This document shows positions 1-31,765 of a stretch of DNA of 35,494 nucleotides, piece by piece. The stretch lies in contig JAJZPU010000002.1 of NCBI GenBank assembly GCA_021811055.1, positions 1 to 35,494 on the forward strand. Reading direction: 5' to 3'. Origin of the DNA: a bacterium (GTDB lineage Bacteria > Patescibacteriota > Minisyncoccia > UBA6257 > GWB1-50-10). Each line of letters starts with the position of its first letter. The first letter of the stretch is position 1. The notes below the pieces were generated by a model. It made no database searches. It was given only the letters and a program-made list of their open reading frames with translations, and had not been told where the DNA came from. The position numbers were made by a program, and so were the translations under genes.

Positions 1-65
1 CACCAAACGCGGGGATGGGAGCGCCTCGGGCCGACGCAAACGACGGAGAAAAGGCGGGCGTAAAA

Positions 66-94
66 CTGGCAAAAATGCTAATATGACTTATAAG
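66..94 (+). promoter_or_regulatory. candidate sigma70-like promoter (CTGGCA - 17 nt - TATAAG)
   Basis: Hexamers read at 66-71 and 89-94 with a 17-nt spacer. It would start a transcript near position 100. Sequence pattern only. Confidence 0.25.
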
Positions 95-99
95 CCTTT

Positions 100-358
100 T
101 TGGAGGAGTGAAGCGGCGGCAGCAAAACCAAAAATTTCCTTCCTTTCAAATTTTCCGCTTCGCGGCGGGGGGTGTGGGGGGAGCCGCAAATAAAAATGGT
201 AGGAAATTTTTGGGTTTTGCCCCGCGCGAGCTTGTCGAGCGCGGCCGAGGCGCAAGTGTCATTCGTCAAAATCCTGCGGATTTTGTCCGAAATACATTCG
301 AACTTCGTCCAATACACACCGCAAAGAAAAGACGGCATTCCAATGTCGTCTTTTTTCA
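100..358 (+). ncRNA. candidate structured non-coding transcript, class unknown
   Basis: GC-rich stretch with no credible ORF; the overlapping ORFs at 78-507 have non-protein-like composition. Long hairpin gcaaaaccaaaaatttcc (133-150) / ggaaatttttgggttttgc (208-226). Small hairpins ccgc-ttc-gcgg and aaaatcc-tgc-ggatttt. It ends at an intrinsic terminator at 327-356. Confidence 0.3.
327..356 (+). terminator. rho-independent terminator
   Basis: Stem aaaagacggcatt / aatgtcgtctttt with a 2-nt loop and one G-U pair, followed by a T-run. Confidence 0.5.
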
Positions 359-369
359 TAAGGAGGCGA

Positions 370-569
370 GCAAATAAAAGTCTTTATTTGCGAGAAGGAT
401 TCGAACGCCGGACTGAAGTTTTGTCAGCAGACAAAACGAAGGAGGCGGTGTCCAGCCCGATGGGGTGCGACGGCACGACCAAGAGGCGAGGACGAATCCT
501 TCCGTGATTTTCACATATGGCGATACCTAGACAAATCATTTGCGACGGCGAATAATTTAGTCGAAGCCG
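370..569 (+). repeat. tRNA-trailer-type structured element, copy E1
   Basis: P0 hairpin at 370-390. Closing helix gaaggattcg (394-403) / cgaatccttc (493-502). Hairpin gttttgtc-AGCA-gacaaaac (418-437). Hairpin gtgc-GACG-gcac (465-476). Extra module ctagac + stem-GACG-stem + agtcgaagcc (527-568). No tRNA is seen upstream inside the window. Confidence 0.6.
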
Positions 570-570
570 T

Positions 571-894
571 ATGAAAACAGCTATTAAATGGATCTTAGGA
601 ATAGTGCTCGTCGTTTGGATGCTTTCTGCTGCTCCTAAATTTTTGGCGGGTATTTTTTGGGCAGATAGTAACGCTCCATGGGAGAAGGTTGATGCCTTTT
701 ATTATCCCGACGTCAATAATCTTATCGAGTGGGAAAGCCAAATGGATATGGGTTCAATTCAGGCTTGTCGTGATTGGGTAGAAGATTTTGCAGCCGCAAA
801 AGGCGATCCTAATTTAGAGCGCGGTGACTACGAGTGTGGGGTTGGTTGTAAAAGCAAAGATGGATTTAATGTCTGTCGCCTAACTATTGAATAA
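571..894 (+). CDS. small secreted or membrane-anchored Cys-containing protein (hypothetical)
   Basis: 107-aa ORF with an N-terminal hydrophobic segment and four Cys in the C-terminal half. Tightly followed by the next ORF (stop 894, next ATG 898). Confidence 0.5.
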   Translation: MKTAIKWILGIVLVVWMLSAAPKFLAGIFWADSNAPWEKVDAFYYPDVNNLIEWESQMDMGSIQACRDWVEDFAAAKGDPNLERGDYECGVGCKSKDGFNVCRLTIE

Positions 895-897
895 TCT

Positions 898-1443
898 ATG
901 TCGATCGCAATCACCTATTTTGTGCATGGAACAACGACCGATAACGAAAACGGAATATCGTCGGGATGGTCGGATGCGGAACTTTCCGAGCGGGGCATAC
1001 AGCAATCCATCGAACTCAAAAAACAAATCGGCGAAAAAAAATTTGATGTGATTTTTTGTTCGGACTTGAAGCGCGCAAAAGATTCCGCACGGTTCGCTTT
1101 TGAAGACATGGCGCCGATAATCGCCGATGCACGATTGCGGGAGTGCAGTTACGGAACAATGAACGGAAAGCCTTCTGCAACGGTTGAACCCGTGCAGGAA
1201 GCGCACACCACGGAACCATTTCCCGATGGCGAAAGTTATGAGGATGTAAAAAGAAGAATCGCCGATTTCCTTGAGTCGGTGAAGAAAAACTGTGTTGGAA
1301 AACGCGTGGCGATCGTCGCGCATAAAGCGCCCCAACTTGCACTCGACGTTTTGTTGAAAAACAAAACATGGGAAGAGGCGTTCAAGGAAGATTGGCGAAA
1401 AACAAAATCTTGGCAACCCGGCTGGGAGTATATTCTCCCTTAA
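898..1443 (+). CDS. histidine phosphatase (phosphoglycerate mutase-like) family protein
   Basis: N-terminal YFVHGTTTDNE resembles the RHG phosphatase motif, here as VHG. Downstream FCSDLKRA and IVAHKAP segments fit the fold. Confidence 0.75.
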   Translation: MSIAITYFVHGTTTDNENGISSGWSDAELSERGIQQSIELKKQIGEKKFDVIFCSDLKRAKDSARFAFEDMAPIIADARLRECSYGTMNGKPSATVEPVQEAHTTEPFPDGESYEDVKRRIADFLESVKKNCVGKRVAIVAHKAPQLALDVLLKNKTWEEAFKEDWRKTKSWQPGWEYILP

Positions 1444-1448
1444 AAAAT

Positions 1449-2057
1449 CTATAATTCGATATTCTCTACAAATTCCTGAAGCGGCTTTCCTATCGCGCGT
1501 TGCCAAAAACGATCCTGTTCTTCCTGGCTCATTTCTGAAATATAGCTTCCTGTTTCCGGATCGATCTGTATCGATTCGAGAGGGTATCCGGGCACCAGTA
1601 CGGCGCTCGGCGCGCTTGTAAAAATACGCGGCGACAAAATTGTCGTTTCTTTATATTCCCCGTCCGGAGTCGCGACACATATCCCGAATTCCCATCGTCC
1701 CGTTGTTCTTTCACCGAATCTTTTTACAAGCGTGGAATAATATCGAAGCACCTCATCGTCGCTCGGTCTTTCGGAGCTCGACGGAATACGGCGCACATTC
1801 AACCCCGGCTGCTCTTCCGAGGAAAGTTCGTCGAAATACAAAGCATTGTCCATTGAGAGAACGGTTGTGTTGAGCGCCTTCGCATACGCGGTCGCTTTTT
1901 TTCTCGCGTTCTCGAGCGCCGTTTTTCCATCCTCTTCAATGCGCGGAAGGGTTACTTCCTTTCCGATTCCCATTACTGTTACACCCATCGGCGCAAGTGC
2001 TCCGCGGATTTGCGCCACCTTCGCCTCATTTGTTGTTCCGATAACAATCTCTTTCAT
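1449..2057 (-). CDS. Ham1/RdgB-like non-canonical purine NTP pyrophosphatase family protein
   Basis: The 202-aa N-terminus IVIGTTNEAKVAQIR ... EEDGKTALENARKKA matches the ITPase-family pattern (T-x-N-x-x-K, E-x-G-x-T-x-x-x-NA-x-x-KA). Confidence 0.7.
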   Translation of the reverse strand: MKEIVIGTTNEAKVAQIRGALAPMGVTVMGIGKEVTLPRIEEDGKTALENARKKATAYAKALNTTVLSMDNALYFDELSSEEQPGLNVRRIPSSSERPSDDEVLRYYSTLVKRFGERTTGRWEFGICVATPDGEYKETTILSPRIFTSAPSAVLVPGYPLESIQIDPETGSYISEMSQEEQDRFWQRAIGKPLQEFVENIEL

Positions 2058-2110
2058 TGTTTATATGATACTACGCTTCTATGTGATTTGCCTTTAATTA
2101 TCATTGTGAT

Positions 2111-2331
2111 AGAGTCGCCTTCGCCTTAAAATTTTTTCGTCAAAAAATTTTAGGCTAGGCACCCTTGCTCTGGGCTTCGCGATGCAAAGATTTGCATAAC
2201 GCTCGCCCGTCTCCGCTATTCGAATACAAGCAGTTGTATTCTCATTTTACGCCCCGACCTCGCGTGCATATCTGCTGATATGCACTGGCTCCGGTGCACA
2301 AAACGGAACGCGAGACACACAAGTGTCTCGC
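2111..2331 (-). repeat. tRNA-trailer-type structured element, copy E6 (long, apparently two units)
   Basis: Read on the minus strand downstream of tRNA-Arg. P0 gcgagacac-ttgt-gtgtctcgc. CCGGAGC, then gtgcatatc-AGCA-gatatgcac, then GCGAGG. A second box attcgaatagcggagac. Then ctagcc + taaaatttttt-GACG-aaaaaatttta + aggcgaaggcgactct, which resembles the tRNA-Arg T-loop cgactcctct. Confidence 0.55.
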
Positions 2332-2360
2332 TTATACGACCTTGTCGTATATCCGTTTTG

Positions 2361-2432
2361 TGCCCTCGAGAGGAGTCGAACCTCTGTTACGAGATCCGCA
2401 ATCTCGCGTCCTATCCATTGAACGACGAGGGC
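2361..2432 (-). tRNA. tRNA-Arg (anticodon GCG)
   Basis: 72-nt cloverleaf folded by hand. Acceptor GCCCTCG/CGAGGGC, anticodon stem CGAGA/TCTCG with loop TTGCGGA, T-arm AGAGG-TTCGACT-CCTCT. No encoded CCA. Confidence 0.85.
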
Positions 2433-2448
2433 GTCGTTTTACCCGCAA

Positions 2449-3036
2449 TTATAGCCCGAAACGGTCCGATAAAAGGTCTATAATTGACTCCTCATATTCT
2501 ACTTCAGAAATTTTACCACGCAATAGCACCCTCGCTTTTTCCGCAAGCGCGCTGTCGATGGGGATGCGGACATACGGATTGATATTCGTCTTTTTTCTTA
2601 AAATAAGTTCATCGAGCGAATATTGCCGGGAACGGATCGAAAAATCACGGAGAGATTCGAAGGGTAATTTCATTTTGTCTTTTATCTCAACACCGGCATC
2701 GGATATTTCAAACTCGAGTATCTGCGGATGGCGCCCGGAAAGGAACATAAGAAGTCCCGCGGCACACAAAATAAATATCCCAAAAAACAAATTTCCGCTC
2801 CAAAACGCGATAATAGCAACAACGATCGCGCCGCCACCGATCAAGGTATACCACGATGCGGGCTTTTGTACCCGTTCGTATTCCGCCGCACGCCACGAAA
2901 GCGGCTCTATTTTTTTCGTTTCTTCGGAAGCGAATTCTTTCTTCTCTTCACTCTCCTGTTTTTTGCTCCGTCGTACCGTCTTCGGTTTTTTCTCTTCCTG
3001 TGGTTCGGTTTTTTTCTTTGGCATGATGATTCTCAT
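2449..3036 (-). CDS. hypothetical membrane protein (Lys/Glu-rich N-terminus, two TM helices)
   Basis: 195-aa ORF with a charged N-terminal tail and the hydrophobic segments WYTLIGGGAIVVAIIAF and FFGIFILCAAGLLMF. An alternative ATG lies at 3024. Confidence 0.65.
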   Translation of the reverse strand: MRIIMPKKKTEPQEEKKPKTVRRSKKQESEEKKEFASEETKKIEPLSWRAAEYERVQKPASWYTLIGGGAIVVAIIAFWSGNLFFGIFILCAAGLLMFLSGRHPQILEFEISDAGVEIKDKMKLPFESLRDFSIRSRQYSLDELILRKKTNINPYVRIPIDSALAEKARVLLRGKISEVEYEESIIDLLSDRFGL

Positions 3037-3106
3037 TATATCAACAGTTCACAACTTGGAAAACCTTCCATTTTCCAAAAAGTATGGAATAATGGAAAAG
3101 TTCGAT

Positions 3107-3178
3107 GGTCCCATCGTCTAACGGTTAGGACACCGCCCTTTCACGGCGGTAATAGGAGTTCGATTCTCCTTGGGACTA
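3107..3178 (+). tRNA. tRNA-Glu (anticodon TTC)
   Basis: 72-nt cloverleaf. Anticodon stem CCGCC/GGCGG with loop CTTTCAC, T-arm AGGAG-TTCGATT-CTCCT, acceptor GGTCCCA/TGGGACT. No encoded CCA. Confidence 0.9.
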
Positions 3179-3193
3179 CAAAGTAGTCATAAT

Positions 3194-3221
3194 AAAACAG
3201 CGCACTTGAGTGCGCTGTTTT
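3194..3221 (+). terminator. terminator-like hairpin after tRNA-Glu (P0 of element E3)
   Basis: aaaacagcgcac-ttga-gtgcgctgtttt, a perfect 12-bp stem ending in T residues. Confidence 0.5.
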
Positions 3222-3331
3222 GGAGAATCGAAGCGCGGAGCCATACGCATCGAGCACGATGCATGGCGAGCGGCGGCCTGCGTGTCCGACGAGCGACGGC
3301 GAGGAGGAACGTGTAGGCGATTTCTCCTTGG
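3222..3331 (+). repeat. tRNA-trailer-type structured element, copy E3
   Basis: ggagaatcg pairs with cgatttctcc (3318-3327). Hairpin gccat..gcatcg-AGCA-cgatgc..atggc (3240-3267). GCGAGCGGCGG. Hairpin cctgcgtgtcc / ggaacgtgtagg around a GACG-containing loop. The 3' end repeats the tRNA-Glu sequence cgatt(t)ctccttgg. Confidence 0.65.
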
Positions 3332-3348
3332 AAGTATGAAGTTGAAAG

Positions 3349-3368
3349 CGATTTCCCTTTGGGACTAC
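3349..3368 (+). repeat. second partial copy of the tRNA-Glu 3' end
   Basis: cgatttccctttgggactac compared with tRNA-Glu 3161-3179 cgattctccttgggactac. Confidence 0.6.
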
Positions 3369-3375
3369 CAATAAA

Positions 3376-3406
3376 AACACCATCGGCAATGATGGTGTTC
3401 TGTTTT
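3376..3406. terminator. bidirectional terminator hairpin
   Basis: aacaccatc-ggcaat-gatggtgtt followed by ctgtttt. It lies between the tRNA-Glu/E3 unit and the convergent ORF 3420-3788. Confidence 0.5.
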
Positions 3407-3419
3407 GAAATAATATGGT

Positions 3420-3788
3420 TTATAGAATTCTCGACATCCGTCGGAAATCGTCGGCAATAATGATCCCGTGTTCCAGTTGGGCCTCTTCACGGATTCCCTC
3501 GAGAATATTCTTTATTCTTTTTTGAATAATGGAACGCTCCTTCTGTGTGCGACCGGAAGCTTTCACTTCATCCAGATCGATCCAGATCGGAAGAAAGAAC
3601 TCGTCGAGATTTATCTTCTTTTTGAATCTACTCGAAAGTCGTGCAAAAAAATCACCAACCTCTTCTTTTTTTTCCGCCGCGATCTTCTCAATCTTTGTGA
3701 ATAACTTCTTAATCTCTTTGAGGTTAAGTTTTTCCGCAACGAGCACGCGCTCTGCATCAAAAACGATGTCGCCAAACAATTCTTCCAT
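3420..3788 (-). CDS. hypothetical protein
   Basis: 122-aa ORF with protein-like charged and helical composition. No motif recognised. Confidence 0.55.
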   Translation of the reverse strand: MEELFGDIVFDAERVLVAEKLNLKEIKKLFTKIEKIAAEKKEEVGDFFARLSSRFKKKINLDEFFLPIWIDLDEVKASGRTQKERSIIQKRIKNILEGIREEAQLEHGIIIADDFRRMSRIL

Positions 3789-3854
3789 GGCATATCCTTT
3801 CGCTTATTTGAAAAATCTACACAAAAAATAACACGCGACTCCCCGCGTGTCAAC

Positions 3855-4502
3855 TTACTTTCCAAGAGTTTCTTTTTTGAAAAGAATGTACGAATACCAC
3901 GCGCTTCCGAACGCGGTTAGAAGTATGGGAACGATCACGAACCAGAAAGCGATTCCCGGAAACGCCATACCAAGAAGCGCAATCACTCCGGACAACACAA
4001 AGAATTTCCCCGCAACGCGATGTGTTTTTTCCCACACGCTCGGACTTGAAATGGTCCACGGGGTCCTGATGCCTATCGTCCAATTCGGTTCCGCATGGGA
4101 TACGAGGCGCCCCATGAGCATAAAAAGAATACTGAGTGCGGGAATCATAAAAAGAGTGAGATTGAATGTCCACCCGAAATTCCACGCAATGGTCAGCCAA
4201 TAAATATACGAGAAGAAAAGAAAGAGTACGAGAATAAACTCATCGAAATACGCTCTGAATTTTTCGATGTTCTCTTTTTTCGGATCAACTCTGGGTATCA
4301 CAAAAAATACGATGCCGAGTATGAGCGCGAGAATCGGCATGAAAAACGTCCCCCAGAATCTCGGCATATATCCATCTACCGCTCCTTCGGTGTTCCAATG
4401 CGACGCGATGCGTTCCGGCATCGCGGGATACACGCACACCCCAAAAATAAACAGGGTGAGTATAAGAGCGCACACAAACCATTCGTTTCGTCTGAGTTTC
4501 AT
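3855..4502 (-). CDS. SdpI/YhfL-family membrane protein with DUF1648-like N-terminus
   Basis: 215 aa. The pattern P...IASHWN..G..DGY, then several TM helices, then the PNWTIGIRTPWT motif is typical of SdpI-family immunity proteins. Confidence 0.8.
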   Translation of the reverse strand: MKLRRNEWFVCALILTLFIFGVCVYPAMPERIASHWNTEGAVDGYMPRFWGTFFMPILALILGIVFFVIPRVDPKKENIEKFRAYFDEFILVLFLFFSYIYWLTIAWNFGWTFNLTLFMIPALSILFMLMGRLVSHAEPNWTIGIRTPWTISSPSVWEKTHRVAGKFFVLSGVIALLGMAFPGIAFWFVIVPILLTAFGSAWYSYILFKKETLGK

Positions 4503-4554
4503 GGGTTATTGTTTGTAATTATATCAAAAAAAGCGACGTGCAACACAACAAACA

Positions 4555-5484
4555 CTATCCATTTATCGTGTATTCGACGAGGACAAACATCGCGTAAAAA
4601 AGGAGGAGAAGAAGGCCCTCTTTTTTCGTGATGATCCTCCCCGAACGCATAAAAGAAAAAAGAAGGATTGCCGCCGCCACCATGAATGTTGCCGTGATAT
4701 ACACGATCTTTTGCGGAAAAGAAAAGGGATTGATAAGCGCAAGCACTCCGACGGCGATCGTCGCATCGGAAATGACCGTTCCTAGCACGTCTCCCAACGC
4801 AAGTCCGTCTCCTTCGTGGCGCACCGCCTTCAGTGAAAAAAACAATTCCGGGAGCGTCGTACCAAGCCCGACAAAAAACATACCGATGAGTACGGGGTTG
4901 ATTGCCAATGCCTCCGCAAACGCAACTCCGAATTTTACGGTCAGATGGGACCCGAGAAGCAATCCTCCCATACTGCAGGCGAGAAAGAGAAGGTTTTTAT
5001 ACGCATAGTGCTCTTTGTGTTCCTCCACCGGTACATCGTGATGATTTTTTCTGAACGTGAGGTAGAAAAAGAAAATACCTGCCGCGATAAGAAAAAGTCC
5101 TTCCACGCGCGAATAGTACCCGTCGAAACCGACAAGGATGGGAAGCGCGAGAAAGAACGGATACCATCTGTTCTCTTCCAAAATCTTACTTTCCACTTTC
5201 AGCCCTCGGGCGACCGAGAAGACGACCACCGCAAGCACAAGTGTAAGATCCGCGACATTCGATCCGAAAAGCGTGCCGAGACCGAACGAAGGAATGCCTC
5301 GAACGGCAGCATTGATCGAGATGAATGTTTCCGGCAATATCGATATGACCGCAACAACAATGAAACCGATAACGTATTTCGGCAGTTTCAACGTATACGC
5401 CAGATTTGATGCGTACCGGATCGCAAAATCCGAGCTTTTGAATACCAAAAAAAGCGACGCGAGAAGAAAAAGCAGATTAAGCAT
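4555..5484 (-). CDS. Ca2+/cation antiporter (CaCA, Na_Ca_ex) family membrane protein
   Basis: 309 aa and polytopic. Two alpha-repeat-like segments: ILPETF..GSNVADLTLVL and GTTLPELFFS..LGDVLGTVISDATIAVG. Confidence 0.8.
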   Translation of the reverse strand: MLNLLFLLASLFLVFKSSDFAIRYASNLAYTLKLPKYVIGFIVVAVISILPETFISINAAVRGIPSFGLGTLFGSNVADLTLVLAVVVFSVARGLKVESKILEENRWYPFFLALPILVGFDGYYSRVEGLFLIAAGIFFFYLTFRKNHHDVPVEEHKEHYAYKNLLFLACSMGGLLLGSHLTVKFGVAFAEALAINPVLIGMFFVGLGTTLPELFFSLKAVRHEGDGLALGDVLGTVISDATIAVGVLALINPFSFPQKIVYITATFMVAAAILLFSFMRSGRIITKKEGLLLLLFYAMFVLVEYTING

Positions 5485-5567
5485 GTGATATTACTTTATT
5501 TAACACTATTTATATATCCCCTTCAAACAGAGAGCCAAATAAAAACAGAGCCTGATTAAAATTCTTT

Positions 5568-5619
5568 GAAGATTCTTCCTCGACTTAAAATGTTTCCGTC
5601 GAAACATTTCGGTCTTAGC
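5568..5619 (-). repeat. extra GACG-loop hairpin module (H') following E2
   Basis: Minus-strand read: gctaagacc-gaaatgtttc-GACG-gaaacattt-taagtcgaggaagaatcttc. Same layout as the 3' module of E1, E2 and E6. Confidence 0.5.
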
Positions 5620-5641
5620 ACCGCACAATTTAAAAACTACA

Positions 5642-5772
5642 GGAGGATTCGGCTTCGACTAAATTATTCGCCGTCGCGAATAATTTGTCTAGCCACCGCC
5701 TCGCGTGCAATTCTTCTGAATTGCTCATGCTCCGGCGTTCGAATCCGAACGCGAGACAAGCAGTTATCTCGC
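5642..5772 (-). repeat. tRNA-trailer-type structured element, copy E2
   Basis: Minus-strand read downstream of tRNA-Ser(TGA). P0 gcgaga..tctcgc (5751-5772). ggattcgaacgccggagc. Hairpin gcaattc-AGAA-gaattgc (5707-5724). cgcgaggcgg. ctagac + aaattattcgc-GACG-gcgaataattt (5661-5686) + agtcgaagccgaatcctcc. Confidence 0.65.
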
Positions 5773-5788
5773 TCCCACATCCGCATGC

Positions 5789-5818
5789 AAAAATAACGCA
5801 TAAATGCGTTATTTTTTT
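5789..5818 (-). terminator. terminator hairpin directly after tRNA-Ser(TGA)
   Basis: aaataacgcat-aa-atgcgttattt flanked by A and T runs. Confidence 0.5.
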
Positions 5819-5819
5819 G

Positions 5820-5904
5820 CGGAAGGTGGAGGATTCGAACCTCCGATGCCTTTCGGCATACCGCATTTCAAGTGCGGCGCATTCGACCACTCTGCCAACC
5901 TTCC
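5820..5904 (-). tRNA. tRNA-Ser (anticodon TGA)
   Basis: 85-nt class II tRNA. Acceptor GGAAGGT/ACCTTCC, anticodon stem CCGCA/TGCGG with loop CTTGAAA, long variable arm TATGCCGAAAGGCATC, T-arm GGAGG-TTCGAAT-CCTCC. Confidence 0.9.
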
Positions 5905-5958
5905 AAAGCACGCAAAATCAGTGTAAATGAAGGCTGTTCCGCCGTAAACCCCCATTTA

Positions 5959-5987
5959 TTGACTTTTTCTATATATTATGCTAGAAT
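5959..5987 (+). promoter_or_regulatory. candidate promoter TTGACT - 17 nt - TAGAAT
   Basis: Hexamers at 5959-5964 and 5982-5987, upstream of ORF 6047, which has a GGAG Shine-Dalgarno at about -12. Confidence 0.45.
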
Positions 5988-6046
5988 ATACTCAGCGTTA
6001 ATATTAAATAACTTAAATTAACTTTTAACATAATGGAGATGACAAA

Positions 6047-6694
6047 ATGGCTGAAAACAATGGACAGACCGCAAACACACAAAATAACCAAAATCGCAAC
6101 AACTGGATTCCCTGGGTATTGGGAATTCTACTTGCTGTTGCATTAACGGCGCTTCTCTTTACAGCACTGAAGAGTGATAAACCCGTTATAACATTCACCG
6201 ATGAAAACGGAATTGTTACTGGAATGGTAAAATCCCCATCAGTCGATGTGCGGTTTCAAACAGATCAACAGGCCCAGCAAAAGGCGACCTACGAATCCCG
6301 TTTGAAAGAAGAAAAACAGCGCACAGAAAATGCGGAAACAAATCTGAAAGAATACCAACACACGAATGCTGCCGCGACTGGAAAACTTTCCGAAAAAATC
6401 GGTGAGGTTGTAGAACAGCAGAAACAAACTAATGCTGAATTGAAAGGTATTCGTTCTGATTTGCAGGAAGTGAAGGGGTGGCAGGAAGTTATCAATGATA
6501 ATATCAACACCGGTTTTGGTAATGTTAACAAAAGTCTTTCGTCGATCGATAAAAATGTTGTTTCGGTAAAAGAAGAAGTTACAAAACAACATGAGCTTAC
6601 CAGGGAAGAAATGAAGAATATCTTCAAGAGTATTCCCAGAAAAGGAAAGAAAGCATCAGAAAACGATGATTGGCCTGACGGAGCAAAGCAGTAA
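6047..6694 (+). CDS. membrane-anchored coiled-coil protein (hypothetical)
   Basis: 215 aa with an Asn/Gln-rich N-terminus, one TM helix (WIPWVLGILLAVALTALLF) and a long charged heptad-like region. SD present. AT-rich. Confidence 0.65.
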   Translation: MAENNGQTANTQNNQNRNNWIPWVLGILLAVALTALLFTALKSDKPVITFTDENGIVTGMVKSPSVDVRFQTDQQAQQKATYESRLKEEKQRTENAETNLKEYQHTNAAATGKLSEKIGEVVEQQKQTNAELKGIRSDLQEVKGWQEVINDNINTGFGNVNKSLSSIDKNVVSVKEEVTKQHELTREEMKNIFKSIPRKGKKASENDDWPDGAKQ

Positions 6695-6715
6695 TATAAA
6701 CAAAATTTTTTCATT

Positions 6716-6752
6716 AAAAAACAGGACTTCAAAAGAGTCCTGTTATTTTTTT
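6716..6752. terminator. bidirectional rho-independent terminator
   Basis: acaggact-tcaaaag-agtcctgt flanked by A-run and T-run, between convergent genes. Confidence 0.6.
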
Positions 6753-6768
6753 AATGATTTTACATTCT

Positions 6769-12685: not shown

Positions 12686-15142
12686 TTAAAGCACTAAATT
12701 CAAAAGTCTCCCAGGCACGTAGATCACTCTCTTCGGATCCTTTCCGTCGAGAAATTTTTCTATACGCGGGAGCACGCGGGCGCGTTTTTCTATTTCTTCC
12801 CGTGTCATTGTCTTTGTTATTTCCATCTCATCGCGCACCTTTCCATTTACCTGTATCGCGATAACGAACGAATCTTTCTCGAGTTTCTTCGAATCGTATG
12901 CGGGCCAGGGTGCGTGGTGTATCGAATGGAAATTTCCATCCTTTTCCATAAAAAGATCCTGCCACAATTCTTCGGTAAGAAACGGCGCGAAGGGAGCGAG
13001 CAACAACAGAAGGGTTTTAAAATATTCACGCGGTATCGCTTCTTTTTTCTCGAACTCGTTCAATAAAATCATCATTGCGCTGATCGCCGTGTTGTATTGG
13101 AGCGATTCGATATCATCCGTCACTTTTTTTATCGTCTGATGTACCACCGTTTCCAGTTTCTTATCTGTTTCTTTTTCGTCCGCGAACTTCGACTCCATCC
13201 CCATTTTCCATACCCGATCGAGAAATCGCGTAATACCGAGCATTCCCTGCTCCCGAAAATCACCACCATATTCAAATGGCGCCAAGAACATAAGATATGT
13301 CCGGAATGCGTCCGCACCGAAATTTTTTACATAGTCGTCCGGGTTAATGACATTCCCCTTCGATTTCGACATCTTCGCGCCGTCTTTTATAAGAAGTCCG
13401 TGCGCTCTGAATTTCGGGAACGGCTCTTCAAATTCGAGATATCCCGCGTCGTGGAGCGCCATCGCCACGAAGCGGACGTATAAAAGATGGAGTACAGAGT
13501 GTTCTGCGCCGCCGATATACATATCGACCGGAAGCCACGCCCTCATTCGCTCTTTCATCAATTCATTGGAAATTGAAAATTGAAAATTGAAAATTTTTTG
13601 AAGATACCCGATATAGTACCACGCCGAATCAAGGAACGTATCGGACACGTCCGTTTCGCGCCGCGCATCGCCGCCGCACGCGGGACATTGTGTTTTATAA
13701 AACTCTTCGACGCTTGCAAGCGGCGACTGCCCCGTTCCTTCGGGACGAAAATTTTTCACTATCGGAAGCACGACCGGAAGCTCTTTCTCCGGCACCGCAT
13801 ACCACCCCGGCATTTCCTTTTGCTCTCCTTTTTTGAGTTCCGCGCACGATGCGCAATAGATCATCGGGATCGGCGGACCCCAATATCTCTGGCGTGAGAT
13901 GAGCCAGTCTCGCAGACGAAATTGCGTGTGTCTTTTTCCACCGACAAACTCGGTGATTTTCCATTTTGCTTCTTCGGAATCTATCCCGTCGAACGCACCG
14001 GAATTGATAAGCGCCCCATCTCCCTCGTAGAGAACACCGGCCTCCCCGCCGGAGATCACATCGACAATGGGTAGTTTAAATTTCTTCGCAAACTCAAAAT
14101 CCCGTTCGTCATGTGCCGGCACCGCCATGATAGCACCCGTGCCGTATCCCGAAAGCACATAGTCCGCTACAAATATCGGTATCTCTTCGTTGTTCGCAGG
14201 ATTTATTACCTTAATTCCCTTCAACTCAATACCGGTTTTTTCCTTATTCTCAACTCTGTCCGCATCCGATTTTTTCTTTGCTTCTTTAACGTACTTTTCA
14301 ACCTCTTCTTTATTGGAAATTGGAAATTGGAAATTGGAAATTGCGTCGTGCTCGGGAGAGACGACGAGATATGTCGCGCCGAACAGCGTATCGGGACGCG
14401 TCGTGAATACCTCAAGATACGAATCGGAATTTGAAATCTTAAATTTAACGAGAGCACCTTCCGATTTCCCTATCCAATTCCGCTGGGCGATCTTCACCTT
14501 TTCCGACCAGTCGATCGTTTCGATGTTCCGAAGGAGCTTGTCCGCATATTTCGTGATCCGGAAGAACCATTGCTCGAGATCCTTTTTTATCACTTCCGTT
14601 TTGCACCGTTCGCACCTTCCTCCCTCTACCTGCTCGTCGGCAAGCACCGTCTTGCACGACGGACACCAGTTTACGAGTTGTTTTTTTCGATATGCGAGTC
14701 CGCGCCGCCACATTTCGGTGAAAAGCCACTGTGTCCACCGGTAGTACGCGGGATCATATGTTTCAAGCCGCTCATCCCACGCAAATCCATTCCCCACGGC
14801 CTCGAGTTGTTTGTAAAATCTCTTTTCCGAAACTTCCGCCTGCTTCGCAGGATGCGTACCGACTTTCAGCGCATAATTTTCCGAATGAATACCGAATCCG
14901 TCGAGACCGATCGGCTCAAAGACGTCATATCCTCTCATCCGTCTGAATCTTCCGTAGATATCCGTTCCCGTAAACGCATACATATTTCCGACATGCAGAC
15001 CTTCCGCCGAAGGATACGGAAACATCATGAGATTATAGAATTTCTTTCTCACCGGAGCGTTCCAGTCGGGTTCGTGTGTCCTTTTTTCACGCCACGTTTG
15101 GGTGAATTTTTTCTCTATTTTCGAAAAGTCGTATTTTTTCAT
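12686..15142 (-). CDS. leuS: leucyl-tRNA synthetase
   Basis: 818 aa with the HVGN (HIGH-type) motif, the KMSKSKGN motif and the typical LeuRS blocks WISRQRYWG and GGAEHSVLHLLY. Confidence 0.95.
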   Translation of the reverse strand: MKKYDFSKIEKKFTQTWREKRTHEPDWNAPVRKKFYNLMMFPYPSAEGLHVGNMYAFTGTDIYGRFRRMRGYDVFEPIGLDGFGIHSENYALKVGTHPAKQAEVSEKRFYKQLEAVGNGFAWDERLETYDPAYYRWTQWLFTEMWRRGLAYRKKQLVNWCPSCKTVLADEQVEGGRCERCKTEVIKKDLEQWFFRITKYADKLLRNIETIDWSEKVKIAQRNWIGKSEGALVKFKISNSDSYLEVFTTRPDTLFGATYLVVSPEHDAISNFQFPISNKEEVEKYVKEAKKKSDADRVENKEKTGIELKGIKVINPANNEEIPIFVADYVLSGYGTGAIMAVPAHDERDFEFAKKFKLPIVDVISGGEAGVLYEGDGALINSGAFDGIDSEEAKWKITEFVGGKRHTQFRLRDWLISRQRYWGPPIPMIYCASCAELKKGEQKEMPGWYAVPEKELPVVLPIVKNFRPEGTGQSPLASVEEFYKTQCPACGGDARRETDVSDTFLDSAWYYIGYLQKIFNFQFSISNELMKERMRAWLPVDMYIGGAEHSVLHLLYVRFVAMALHDAGYLEFEEPFPKFRAHGLLIKDGAKMSKSKGNVINPDDYVKNFGADAFRTYLMFLAPFEYGGDFREQGMLGITRFLDRVWKMGMESKFADEKETDKKLETVVHQTIKKVTDDIESLQYNTAISAMMILLNEFEKKEAIPREYFKTLLLLLAPFAPFLTEELWQDLFMEKDGNFHSIHHAPWPAYDSKKLEKDSFVIAIQVNGKVRDEMEITKTMTREEIEKRARVLPRIEKFLDGKDPKRVIYVPGRLLNLVL
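13568..13595 (-). repeat. in-frame heptanucleotide tandem repeat inside leuS (site B)
   Basis: Plus strand ggaaatt gaaaatt gaaaatt gaaaatt. Sense-strand AATTTTC x3 plus AATTTCC. Encodes IFNFQFSISN. Confidence 0.9.
14312..14343 (-). repeat. in-frame heptanucleotide tandem repeat inside leuS (site A)
   Basis: Four perfect ggaaatt units at 14315-14342 on the plus strand. Sense-strand AATTTCC x4. Encodes ISNFQFPISN. Confidence 0.9.
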
Positions 15143-29572: not shown

Positions 29573-31765
29573 ATGGAATCAATTTCAGGCGCATACGACC
29601 CAAAAAAAACGGAATCGGAAACATATAAAAAATGGGAGGAGTCGGGATACTTCAATCCCGACAATCTTCCGGAAAACAAAGGAGAAAACTATATCGCCTA
29701 TATGCCGCTTCCCAATGTGACGGGAACGCTTCATATGGGGCACGCGCTGAATAATACATTTCAGGATATTCTTATTCGCTTCCATCGCATGCGCGGACGG
29801 AAAACGTTGTGGTTTCCCGGCACCGATCACGCGGGCATCGCGACACAATTCGTTGTCGAAAAACAGTTGAAAAAAGAAGGGACGAACCGCTTCGCGTTGG
29901 GACGGGAAAAGTTCGTTGAAAAGGTGTGGGAGTGGAAAAATCAATATGGGAACATCATCTACGATCAGTTGAAAAAATTGGGTATTTCGTGTGATTGGTC
30001 GCGCGTCCGTTTTACGATGGATGACGCATATGCAAAAGACGTGCAAAACGCCTTCGTTCATTATTACGAAAAAGGACTCCTCTATCGTGGGTACCGCACG
30101 GTAAACTGGTGTCCGCGATGTGCGACAAGCCTTTCGGATCTGGAACTTGAATATAAGGAGGAGGAGGCAAAACTGTACTATATACAATACGGTCCGTTCA
30201 CGCTTGCAACGACCCGCCCCGAAACGAAATTCGGCGATACGGGACTTGCGGTGAATCCGCGCGATTCCCGCTACAAAGACTACGTAGGAAAGGAGCTCGA
30301 CATCGAGTCGCTCTCAACCGAAGGATCGCTTGATACACCACAGAAAAAGAAAAATAAAATTATTGTGGTCGCCGACGATGCGGTGGACGTCGAATTCGGT
30401 ACCGGTATCATCAAGGTGACTCCCGCACATGATCTTGTTGATTTTGAAATTGGATCGCGCCACCATCTTCCGCTTGTACAGGTTATTGACGAGGAAGGAA
30501 AGATGACCGAACATGCGGGAAAATATGAGGGAATGAAAACCGCGGATGCACGGAAAAAAATAGTCGAGGATTTAAAAACAGTAGGACTCCTCAAAAAAGA
30601 AGAACCATACACACACAATGTCGCCGTCTGCTACCGCTGCGGACATGTGATCGAGCCGATCCCGTCAAAGCAGTGGTTTTTGAAAATGGAAACACTCGCG
30701 AAAACGGCGCTTGAAGCGGTAAAGAGCGGAACGGTAAAGATTCATCCTGAAAATTTTGAAAAACCATATACCGCATGGCTTGAGAATATAAAGGATTGGA
30801 CCATTTCCCGGCAAATCTGGTGGGGGCACCAACTTCCTGTGTATTTTTGTAAAAATACACAGGAAGTAATTTCCAATTCTCAATTTCCAATTTCTAATAA
30901 AGAAAAGGGGAAATATATTATATCGTTAGAAAAACCGAAAAAGTGTCCTTTCTGCAAACAATGCGAGATGGAGCAGGCTCCGGACGTGCTTGATACCTGG
31001 TTTTCGTCCGCACTCTGGCCGTTCGCTGGGCTTTCGGAATCGGATCAAAAAAAATATTATCCCGGCACCACACTCATTACCGCACGCGACATTTTAAATC
31101 TCTGGGTGGCGCGCATGATCTTTTCCGGCATCGAATTCCGCGGTGAAGTTCCGTTCAAGGATGTTTTGATCCACGGCACCATTCTCACGAAAGACGGAAA
31201 ACGGATGTCTAAAAGTCTCGGCACCGGCATCGACCCTCTGAAATATATCGATATGTATGGTGCCGACGCGACCCGATTCGGCATCGTGTGGCAGGCAAGC
31301 GGACAGGATATCCGGTGGGACGAGACCGCGATTGTCGCCGGAAAAAAATTCCTGAATAAACTCTGGAACGCGTCGCGGTTCGTGCTTACACAAGCGGAAA
31401 AAGACGACGGACAATCGCTTCGCGCACCCAACGCAAAAACCGACGCGGATACAAAGATCCTCGAAGCATTCTCAAAGATAAAGACGAGCGTTGAGAAGGA
31501 TATAGCACAGTTCGAATTTTCAAAAGCATTGAGAGATCTTTACGAGTTCTTCTGGCATGAATTCTGCGATGTATATCTCGAAACATCGAAAAAACAACTC
31601 GGTGAAGAAACAACCAAAGAAAACACCGCACACATACTTCTCTTCATACTCCGTGAGTCACTGAAATTATTCCACCCATTCGTCCCGTTTGTTACCGAGG
31701 AAATATACGGACGATGCCCGTTTAAGGACAAAAAAGAATTTCTGATGGTAGAGAGTATTCTATAG
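29573..31765 (+). CDS. valS: valyl-tRNA synthetase (short, no C-terminal coiled-coil)
   Basis: 730 aa. PNVTGTLHMGHAL (HIGH-type), KMSKSLGT, WTISRQIWWGH and the DVLDTWFSS blocks. Confidence 0.95.
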   Translation: MESISGAYDPKKTESETYKKWEESGYFNPDNLPENKGENYIAYMPLPNVTGTLHMGHALNNTFQDILIRFHRMRGRKTLWFPGTDHAGIATQFVVEKQLKKEGTNRFALGREKFVEKVWEWKNQYGNIIYDQLKKLGISCDWSRVRFTMDDAYAKDVQNAFVHYYEKGLLYRGYRTVNWCPRCATSLSDLELEYKEEEAKLYYIQYGPFTLATTRPETKFGDTGLAVNPRDSRYKDYVGKELDIESLSTEGSLDTPQKKKNKIIVVADDAVDVEFGTGIIKVTPAHDLVDFEIGSRHHLPLVQVIDEEGKMTEHAGKYEGMKTADARKKIVEDLKTVGLLKKEEPYTHNVAVCYRCGHVIEPIPSKQWFLKMETLAKTALEAVKSGTVKIHPENFEKPYTAWLENIKDWTISRQIWWGHQLPVYFCKNTQEVISNSQFPISNKEKGKYIISLEKPKKCPFCKQCEMEQAPDVLDTWFSSALWPFAGLSESDQKKYYPGTTLITARDILNLWVARMIFSGIEFRGEVPFKDVLIHGTILTKDGKRMSKSLGTGIDPLKYIDMYGADATRFGIVWQASGQDIRWDETAIVAGKKFLNKLWNASRFVLTQAEKDDGQSLRAPNAKTDADTKILEAFSKIKTSVEKDIAQFEFSKALRDLYEFFWHEFCDVYLETSKKQLGEETTKENTAHILLFILRESLKLFHPFVPFVTEEIYGRCPFKDKKEFLMVESIL
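30868..30898 (+). repeat. in-frame heptanucleotide tandem repeat inside valS
   Basis: aatttcc aattctc aatttcc aatttct aat. Encodes ISNSQFPISN. Confidence 0.85.

Follow-up and report, generated by a model that had tools for sequence, protein, structure and literature searches.

The stretch of DNA analysed here, referred to as the window, comprises 35,494 nt of a Patescibacteria contig (positions 1 to 35,494 of JAJZPU010000002.1, assembly GCA_021811055.1). Downstream of its genes for tRNA-Glu(UUC) and tRNA-Ser(CGA) lie two similar sequences, E3 and E4. Rather than being an isolated pair of small RNA (sRNA) genes, they are the terminal modules of insertions that form a multi-copy family associated with tRNA genes. 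Both have the same fold, with a closing helix (P1) around a bulged hairpin with an AGCA loop (P2) and a long second hairpin (P4/P3). At the tRNA-Glu gene, the following features were recognised, where "cassette" denotes the proposed inserted unit, MFE the minimum free energy structure and CM the covariance model of the family:

3107..3179, + strand: tRNA-Glu(UUC), the putative attachment site of E3 (ARAGORN, Rfam, sequence); the first copy of the duplicated 3' part starts at C56 (3161)
3180..3221, + strand: trailer, probably cassette-borne (sequence; the upstream 45 nt fold at -19.1 kcal/mol)
3222..3230, + strand: P1 5' arm GGAGAATCG, an exact reverse complement of the T-loop/T-stem 3' strand of tRNA-Glu (sequence)
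3231..3317, + strand: E3 body (MFE; CM match 3221-3328 at 70.7 bits; subtype-C consensus)
3318..3337, + strand: P1 3' arm and second copy of the tRNA-Glu 3' part, displaced and decaying (CGATTTCTCCTTGGAAGTAT) (sequence; direct-repeat analysis)
3338..3407, + strand: 3'-end stub of a putative older cassette (AGTTGAAAG), third copy of the tRNA-Glu 3' part and apparent original terminator (sequence; terminator scan)

The trailer contains the reverse complement of the acceptor 3' end (GTAGTC, 3183-3188) and a terminator-like GC hairpin with a T-run (3194-3221), which occupies the position of a hairpin designated P0. The body consists of P1a (3234-3236 with 3270-3272), P2 with the AGCA loop (3240-3267) and P4/P3 (3277-3287 with 3306-3317, the apex lying between). 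The third tRNA-Glu copy is at 3349-3369 (...GGGACTACC) and the apparent original terminator at 3376-3407.

The arrangement at the tRNA-Ser(CGA) gene is longer:

9212..9301, + strand: tRNA-Ser(CGA), the putative attachment site of E4; the duplicated part begins at C56 (9281)
9302..10268, + strand: probable cargo of the E4 cassette, an open reading frame (ORF) with a CYTH domain (9399-9914) and a 60-aa ORF (9919-10101) (Pfam; gene calls in L135; sequence)
10269..10290, + strand: P0 hairpin GCGAGCAAA-CTGC-TTTGCTCGC, with the family-typical 9-bp stem and 4-nt loop
10295..10396, + strand: E4, with P1 5' arm GAGATTCG (10295-10302), body (10303-10389) and P1 3' arm CGAATCC (10390-10396)
10403..10414, + strand: CACCCTCTCCGC, a remnant of the tRNA-Ser(CGA) 3' end, apparently the displaced original (sequence comparison)

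E4, which the CM matches at 10293-10399 with 61.4 bits, is about 1 kb away from its tRNA gene, in a unit of about 1.1 kb with two ORFs. Because the tRNA-Ser 3' remnant is found beyond E4, the CYTH-domain and 60-aa ORFs would lie inside this unit. An orphan GGGGATTCGAAC at 9385-9396, 85 nt past tRNA-Ser(CGA) and immediately 5' of the CYTH ORF start, resembles a P1 5' arm (a T-loop reverse complement) that has no body.

Compensatory changes between E3 and E4

A repeat search of the window returned a direct repeat of 98 nt with 85% identity (3223-3320 and 10295-10392). In the first-pass annotation, 3229-3320 had been aligned to 10301-10392 without gaps, and a direct count confirms 78 identities over 92 nt, with the 14 differences at the positions implied there; the best of 200,000 random pairs of 92-nt windows had 51 identities. 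It had also been claimed that the differences within stems are compensatory, and all of those listed were found. In the AGCA hairpin (gcatcg/cgatgc in E3, gcgttc/gaatgc in E4), C-G is replaced by U-A, G-C by C-G and A-U by G.U. In the second hairpin, T to A at 3283 together with G to T at 3311 converts U.G to A-U, and five further differences are located at its apical part (3294-3296, 3299-3300). An additional compensated pair occurs in the closing helix just beyond the range of that alignment, where A to T at 3227 is accompanied by T to A at 3321.

E3 and E4 form the same fold on the + strand, at -43.2 and -45.5 kcal/mol (z-scores of -2.2 and -4.5 against dinucleotide shuffles), while their - strands fold no better than shuffled sequences (z +0.3 and -1.0). 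When the E3 MFE structure is taken as reference (34 pairs, 103 nt, 18 differences to E4), five pairs are changed on both sides and three on a single side with pairing kept, and none is broken. Under random mutation (200,000 trials), the probability of at least five double changes was 3e-5, and there was not a single trial in which no pair was broken.

Chance similarity, or a recent segmental duplication without a selected structure, has to be considered for any such pattern, as the first comparison had involved two copies only and GC-rich sequence folds easily. This explanation, to which we give practically no credence, is refuted by the random-mutation trials and by the more than 100 homologues described below, where compensation is far above that in shuffled and slid controls. 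A short protein-coding ORF was likewise rejected, as 11 of 33 residues differ in the sole frame open in both E3 and E4 and as the lengths of family members (102-115 nt) are evenly distributed over the mod-3 classes.

In the subtype of E3 and E4 (C), P4 and P3 merge into one continuous helix (CCUGCG.../...UGUAGG). All pairs with compensation between E3 and E4 recur in the consensus fold of seven subtype-C copies, and two of its G.U pairs are invariant in all seven.

A family of folded modules in Patescibacteria

A species-representative genome collection was searched with a degenerate pattern derived from the conserved junctions (TCGAASSSCGGAGC...GCGAG(N)CGG). Among the matches listed there are at least 118 loci, about 80 of them clearly homologous, and the homologous ones are almost all in metagenome-assembled genomes (MAGs) from Patescibacteria, ultra-small bacteria also known as the candidate phyla radiation (CPR), including Saccharibacteria, Paceibacteria and Kaiser-, Taylor-, Nomura-, Magasanik-, Uhr- and Portnoybacteria. 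GC-rich matches outside the CPR (Solirubrobacterales, Devosia, Natrinema and others) were dismissed as chance matches to coding DNA, with neither a tRNA nor the fold, and the pattern had no match in a viral contig collection. One Vicinamibacterales MAG (Acidobacteriota) has two contigs that score 32 bits with the family CM and have no tRNA nearby (L019 421-516 and L058 5354-5459); these may be a distant non-CPR relative or may have arisen by chance. A CPR affiliation of the window was also deduced from the distribution of the element and from relatives in 0.1-um groundwater filtrates.

For an alignment of 59 copies, RNAalifold predicts 27 pairs, of which 24 show compensatory changes. Hand refinement led to a structure of 36 pairs, consisting of the closing helix P1, a 4-bp P1a, the bulged hairpin P2, a 3-bp P4 and the irregular hairpin P3. 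Over the 59 copies and 36 pairs, 88.5% of cells are pairing, compared to 68.3 +/- 0.6% when partners are shuffled and 36-43% when they are slid by 1-3 columns; doubly compensated cells number 435, compared to 143 +/- 10 and 84-109, respectively. The 59 family members, like the seven subtype-C copies, place the compensated E3/E4 positions opposite each other, and the additional homologues contribute further compensation rather than broken pairs, with double changes in 29 of the 36 pairs. Both tests support the initial reading that the compensated differences reflect selection for the fold; most likely, the fold is functional for the propagation of the element, and not necessarily for the cell. 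A CM built from the alignment gave 115 matches in the fetched loci (95 in L001-L100 and 20 in L101-L138), including copies beyond the reach of the search pattern.

The mismatches in the 59 copies provide a hint to the active strand, with 103 G.A/A.G as opposed to 28 C.U/U.C. The tRNA-sense strand is favoured because of this G.A excess, the invariant G.U pairs of subtype C and folding energies that stand out on the + strand only. A kissing interaction between the loops of P0 (often CUGC) and P2 (often AGCA) was considered and rejected, as P0 loops vary without matching changes in P2 among the 59 copies.

The tRNAs are the sole matches in the window at Rfam 15 gathering scores. At E<=10, no meaningful overlap with any copy was obtained for positions 1-11000 (BcKCsr7 reached 20 bits on the wrong strand), and at E<=1 there was none in the eight loci with the best-scoring copies. 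A literature search combining CPR/Patescibacteria with tRNA, mobile element, T-loop, intron, RNA motif and folded single-stranded DNA (ssDNA) found no description of such elements; TIGR-Tas systems, considered from the literature, are unrelated to them. Apparently, the family is a widespread and hitherto undescribed one, consisting of folded modules of about 105 nt at the end of small cassettes in tRNA T-loops.

Linkage to tRNA genes

Essentially all genuine members from the pattern scan are located 23-130 nt (a few further) downstream of a tRNA gene on the same strand, with 17 isotypes represented. The same holds for all 14 copies in the first group of CM-only matches examined, at distances of 16-387 nt (mostly below about 200 nt). 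In the P1 5' arm (GGAGAATCG in E3, GGGATTCGAAC after tRNA-Ala), the T-loop and T-stem 3' strand of the upstream tRNA appear as their reverse complement, and the P1 3' arm is the start of a second, direct tRNA copy that extends from about C56 to the 3' end. When the near-universal TTCGA is left aside, the remaining 7 nt of the 5' arm match the cognate tRNA at 6.18/7, as compared to 3.92 +/- 0.12 for non-cognate tRNAs. The direct repeats vary in length from 7 to 39 nt and often run beyond the tRNA end into the flank (35-39 nt in L107, L036 and L088). Because they extend past the tRNA end, they must be copies of genomic DNA and not of mature tRNA.

An arm that complements its target like a guide is reminiscent of small ribozymes or retro-elements. 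A catalytic body (self-cleaving or reverse-splicing) would use the P1 5' arm as an internal guide to the T-arm of the target and would spread through an RNA intermediate that is copied back to DNA. P1 is formed with flanking target sequence, as are the guide pairings of group I and group II introns, the body is compact, with several helices and invariant junction nucleotides, and the same P1 logic recurs in several unrelated body types. However, the duplicated part is genomic trailer sequence instead of a CCA-ended mature tRNA, which implies a DNA-derived repeat. Also, no Rfam ribozyme family matched even at E<=10, no reverse transcriptase is encoded nearby and the upstream hairpin is terminator-like in most copies, so that we consider this explanation highly improbable.

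The spacer between the tRNA and the fold usually contains a terminator-like hairpin and the hairpin P0, with 9 bp and a 4-nt loop. In 20 of 68 copies the spacer also contains the reverse complement of the acceptor 3' strand, where 2.1 would be expected. An acceptor-plus-T minihelix thus becomes possible, in keeping with the module being a host-useful non-coding RNA in the tRNA 3' trailer, whether as a processing signal (similar to the "t-elements" recognised by RNase P/Z), as a generator of tRNA fragments or as a protein-binding decoy specific to the adjacent tRNA. A read-through transcript would then adopt a tRNA-like three-way structure, in which an acceptor-like helix and P0 join an extended T-stem (P1) with the body, and the DNA duplications would merely reflect how the modules arose. 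Indeed, it is the tRNA-sense strand that folds, and the modules always have the orientation of their tRNA; the conserved purine-rich internal loops and tandem G.A pairs of the body are typical of RNA-protein or tertiary motifs. But 70% of the copies have no acceptor complement, older copies lose the acceptor-like part and keep only P1 and the body, and between tRNA and body there is usually a terminator-like hairpin with a T-run. Furthermore, only some tRNAs have an element and close relatives are without it at the same tRNA, several sequence lineages are found side by side in one genome, and dead copies pile up. A trailer RNA of this kind appears unlikely to us, also in view of the strain differences described below.

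Several units may follow a single tRNA in series or in tandem (L069, L077, L054, L106 and L031), some with unrelated bodies, while those in L031 are identical. Cargo occurs in the same position at other loci, with a 230-aa ORF in L012 and about 3 kb in L073; one ORF in the latter is presumably an IS30-like transposase, as judged by its N-terminal sequence only, and probably a secondary insertion. Cargo genes differ by locus and are unrelated (CYTH, a helix-turn-helix (HTH) protein, IS30-like), and a search among the cargo ORFs for an autonomous partner did not reveal a consistent enzyme. The 230-aa protein of L012 (5457-6149) has only weak HTH matches (Pfam, PHROGs, PDB). Its homologues (P0001-P0120; loci L139-L151) are from CPR, with a tRNA gene 4-380 nt away in most contexts and about 1.7 kb away in L139, and none of the 13 further loci has an R1-type element. 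Genes of this HTH family, cargo of a cassette in L012 but not otherwise linked to the fold, are often on contigs of about 1 kb, as are repeated genes, and a few sources call them transposase-like.

Such findings raise the question of whether the elements are scars or minimal derivatives of integrase-driven tRNA islands or prophages, the body being a passenger sRNA gene or a regulatory region near attR that was kept for the islands' own regulation, and the 150-nt units being deletion remnants. Duplication of the tRNA 3' part from the T-loop onwards is the classical signature of integrase insertion, some units are kilobases long, and a fragment of a large serine recombinase lies about 3.8 kb upstream of the element in L029, although it was the only such gene in the regions upstream of L029 and L042. 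Against this, the copies, more than 100 in number, are overwhelmingly minimal units of about 150-200 nt with an intact fold, no integrase is found in or near any copy in the window, cargo is unrelated between loci, a reverse-complement arm that tracks the tRNA is not a feature of lambda-type attP arms, and no copy was detected in the viral contigs. We consider an origin from islands to be quite unlikely, if less so than a ribozyme.

Turnover between closely related strains

A near-identical strain (L152; GCA_027423355.1) is 100% identical to the window at tRNA-Glu and in the distal flank, including the outer region 3338..3407, while the body between them is unrelated. That body (type D) is equally well folded and is closed by the same GGAGAAUC/GAUUCUCC helix. 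The functional tRNA-Glu of L152 differs in its discriminator base (G vs A), whereas the distal tRNA copy ends alike in both strains, from which we infer that the proximal 3' part travels with the cassette. This matches the expectation for a cassette that enters inside the tRNA with its own new 3' part. The presence of unrelated bodies at the same tRNA in near-identical strains is a further objection to a trailer RNA that serves the host.

Type D bodies are about 135 nt long, have several hairpins (z = -4.7 for the L152 copy) and are unrelated to those of E3 and E4. They were found in L152 (4223-4375, +), L120 (5121-5272, -) and L127 (176-228), with the same layout of a reverse-complement T-arm arm, the body and then the duplicated tRNA 3' part.

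At tRNA-Arg, L152 and L154 have one extra tandem unit of about 190 nt. In the unit shared with the window, three adjacent compensated pairs differ at the apex of P2 (window 2270-2282; AUAUC-AGCA-GAUAU vs AACGC-AGAA-GCGUU), while the flanks are about 97-100% identical, which suggests patch-wise conversion from another copy and not point mutation. In the more distant relatives L120 and L122 (50-59% identity in HtrA, same tRNA cluster), tRNA-Ser(CGA) is free of an element and directly followed by a terminator, and their other tRNAs have a different body type. Same-species assemblies break at elements, with L136 and L137 starting inside E4 and L154 and L155 just upstream of a copy at 394-502, which is consistent with multi-copy or polymorphic sequence.

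A proposed cassette model

The fold with its compensation, the tRNA linkage, the cognate-derived P1, the direct repeats, the stacking of units, the cargo at some loci, the strain turnover and the lack of a nearby recombinase are direct observations. Of the explanations for them, we favour, with modest confidence, one in which E3 and E4 are the terminal structured modules of small, non-autonomous, site-specific integrative cassettes that have the T-loop of tRNA genes as their attachment site. A tyrosine-recombinase-type enzyme would be the most likely candidate for the integration reaction, but we are less confident of this assignment than of the cassettes as such.

Such a cassette would begin with a substitute for the tRNA 3' part (about C56 to the 3' end), followed by a trailer, the 9-bp P0, the P1 5' arm and a body of about 85 nt. 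In the trailer there would usually be a terminator-like hairpin, often a reverse-complemented acceptor end and sometimes ORFs, and in the body two irregular hairpin domains, P1a/P2 and P4/P3. Insertion would occur in the T-loop between tRNA positions 55 and 57, and the tRNA gene would stay functional through the spare 3' part and terminator supplied by the cassette. The original 3' part would be pushed beyond the body, where its pairing with the P1 5' arm closes the fold. We suppose that the module acts as a single strand (ssDNA or tRNA-sense RNA), the whole unit forming a rod with the body at one end, that the P1 duplex mimics the half-site formed by the T-arm of the tRNA gene, and that a trans-acting recombinase encoded elsewhere in the genome recognises P1 together with the body. 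New cassettes would enter at the intact tRNA, so moving older ones outward. As a comparison of E3 with E4 shows, colonisation of a new tRNA involves rewriting of both the spare 3' part and its complement.

Several points weigh against this proposal. No enzyme was identified, no excised form was seen, and neither was an exact empty allele in a near-identical strain; the strain differences amount to cassette replacement and changes in copy number, which homologous recombination between repeats could also produce. An element that switches tRNA would have to acquire the new 3' part together with its reverse complement, for which the model gives no explanation. The body surpasses known ssDNA recombination sites in sequence conservation and in its content of G.A motifs, more in line with a function as RNA or in an RNA-protein complex. 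RNA-type wobble is not clearly favoured in the 59 copies (45 G.U vs 40 A.C mismatches), and the terminator-like hairpin that usually precedes the body speaks against strong transcription, though read-through may occur.

A more far-reaching proposal, which we regard as tentative and rather doubtful, is that Patescibacteria possess an integron-like but mechanistically distinct cassette system with structure- or guide-directed insertion into any tRNA T-loop. Retargeting would proceed via the spare tRNA 3' part and its reverse complement, and the folded module of about 85 nt would either recruit an enzyme in trans or be catalytic itself. Such a system would constitute a new class of site-specific insertion into DNA and be a main source of the variation among strains with these reduced genomes.

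If the cassette model is correct, CPR tRNA genes are hot spots for very abundant, tiny cassettes that have copies in most of the CPR classes sampled. Such elements have so far been missed by annotation, since they have no coding content of their own and resemble no RNA family, and they break assemblies, differ among near-identical strains and can carry genes. They also offer a clean natural case of a conserved fold combined with a guide or mimic helix taken from the target, and the partner enzyme, if identified, could provide a new programmable insertion chemistry with its specificity set by an arm of about 11 nt. Should the RNA be used by the cell instead, the elements would define a new class of regulatory or processing RNAs linked to tRNAs. 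In either case, the family merits a covariance model in a public database.

Comparison with known systems

The closest working likeness is to integron cassettes with their attC sites and to tRNA-integrating islands, but the elements differ from both in defining features. As in integrons, cassettes with or without ORFs stack at one site with the newest adjoining that site, and each ends in an imperfect inverted repeat that is conserved in structure rather than sequence. Its distal arm comes from the next unit or the attachment site, as does the P1 3' arm, which lies either within the following cassette or within the tRNA part that was displaced. In integrons, too, the enzyme can be encoded elsewhere (integrase-less arrays are known as CALINs) and cassette content varies among close strains. 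Unlike integron cassettes, the elements attach at the T-loops of many tRNA genes and not at attI, have long direct repeats (10-39 nt) and carry a tRNA 3' part, and their module is a conserved two-domain fold as opposed to the simple bulged hairpin of attC. The R''/R' cores of attC (RYYYAAC ... GTTRRRY) are absent from the elements, which have the arms ...ATTCGAAC and CGAATCC... and a duplication starting at C56/G57, with the distal copy lacking TT. Among the more than 40 ORFs of the 35-kb window there is no recombinase domain that would point to an IntI-type integrase with an attI platform and, more generally, no integrase, recombinase, transposase, HUH enzyme or reverse transcriptase.

Islands and prophages that integrate into tRNA genes by tyrosine integrases with T-loop sublocation share with the elements the insertion within a tRNA, the 3' part restored by the incoming DNA, the displaced partial tRNA copy at the far end and the possible tandem occupancy of one tRNA. 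A direct repeat of the tRNA 3' part bounds the insert in both (exact over 33 nt at tRNA-Ala, elsewhere up to 39 nt), but the inserts of 150-1100 nt in the window hold no integrase gene. The elements differ from islands by being mostly 150-200 nt long, by occurring several times per 10 kb and by combining a target reverse complement with a compensatorily evolving fold.

REP/REPIN (RAYT) and IS200/IS605-derived elements are likewise short, non-coding, GC-rich intergenic hairpins with compensatory changes; they are presumed to be active in single-stranded form, with one enzyme per genome mobilising them in trans. REPINs, however, are simple hairpin doublets and show neither target duplication nor tRNA specificity, while the arms of the elements are copied from a defined tRNA position. 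Classical IS200/IS605 insertion is disfavoured because the target sequence is duplicated in the elements, and no Y1 HUH transposase (RAYT/TnpA) is encoded in the 35-kb window. The ssDNA attP of CTX-type phages (XerCD) similarly has two inverted target copies about 90 nt apart that fold as a mimic of the target duplex, and it depends on a host recombinase while encoding none itself. But its target is dif and not a tRNA, it is part of a phage genome, and no conserved structured domain occupies the loop between the two copies.

Miniature inverted-repeat transposable elements (MITEs) have terminal inverted repeats and a short target-site duplication of fixed length, produced by a DDE transposase. 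The elements do have inverted arms, but these copy the target and differ per tRNA, and their direct repeats vary from 7 to 39 nt. With respect to IS110 bridge RNA and TnpB omega RNA, no ORF for a DEDD recombinase, TnpB or IscB adjoins any copy in the window, and IS605-orfB and HEARO gave no Rfam match (window positions 1-11000 at E<=10; eight loci at E<=1).

Mitochondrial GC clusters, double-hairpin elements and the t-elements of plant mitochondria are GC-rich structured modules, mobile or repeated, in AT-rich compact genomes, where they often flank tRNAs; t-elements are acceptor/T-arm mimics that serve as RNase P/Z sites. All are organellar and are not known to have a duplication of the cognate tRNA 3' part or a cognate-specific guide arm.

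Other copies and neighbouring features

The repeat search also linked 2251-2332 with 5692-5773 and 7867-7892, and 506-572 with 5647-5713. When read on the strand of the nearest tRNA, these repeats align with E3 and E4. In total, the CM identifies five intact and four decayed copies in the window, the decayed ones lying distal to intact ones, and at least nine copies or remnants adjoin five of the seven tRNA genes in its first 10.4 kb. Those besides E3 and E4 are:

7780..7887, - strand: intact subtype-A copy after tRNA-Ala(GGC) (7920-7993) (CM 103.9 bits)
5642..5749, - strand: intact subtype-A copy after tRNA-Ser(UGA) (5819-5904) (CM 90.3 bits)
5567..5641, - strand: decayed older copy next to the preceding one (CM 15.9 bits)
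394..566, + strand: intact subtype-A copy (394-502), then a half copy (527-566) (CM 89.1 and 13.6 bits)
2108..2331, - strand: decayed copies after tRNA-Arg(GCG) (2360-2432) (CM 23.9 and 31.9 bits; strain alignment)

The copy after tRNA-Ala is flanked by an exact 33-nt direct repeat (7898-7937 / 7749-7788), which extends from the T-loop to 16 nt past the tRNA end. For the copy at 394-502, there is no tRNA within about 880 nt upstream in longer contigs. The decayed set at tRNA-Arg comprises a P0 hairpin (2310-2331), a P2 domain (2257-2295) and a degenerate copy (2108-2230).

The AT-rich P3 hairpin of E2-type copies (528-556, +; 5691-5663, -) has a promoter-like TAGACA-17-AATAAT, and in the half copy this hairpin ends 15 nt upstream of the start of an ORF (571-894). 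Decayed copies may thus donate promoters.

The genes in the 35-kb window have housekeeping functions only, including TsaD, MurD, TatD and five aminoacyl-tRNA synthetases (LeuRS, a MetRS-like enzyme, two more of class I and one of class II). Between tRNA-Val and tRNA-Ala (8010-8600, -) there are genes for a GIY-YIG protein (86 aa) and an RNHCP-domain protein; these two tRNA genes are 5 nt apart in the syntenic relative L120, which indicates another insertion at a tRNA boundary in the window. Short tandem GGAAATTG/GAAAATTG repeats, unrelated to the elements, are present at three intergenic sites (13562-13595, 14309-14342 and, inverted, 30860-30908).

Two observations concern other loci. In L150 (2142-2437), a tRNA gene that directly follows tRNA-Val has an insert of about 210 nt past the anticodon region (GCCCTGGTAGCTCAG...CTGAA | insert | ...GTTCAATTCTGACCCGGGGCACCA), which is probably a group I intron. 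L013, a Patescibacteria contig that also carries an element, has two sequences resembling type III hammerheads (7917-7971, -, and 3596-3650, +), with scores of 42 and 37 bits, below the gathering score of 48.5.

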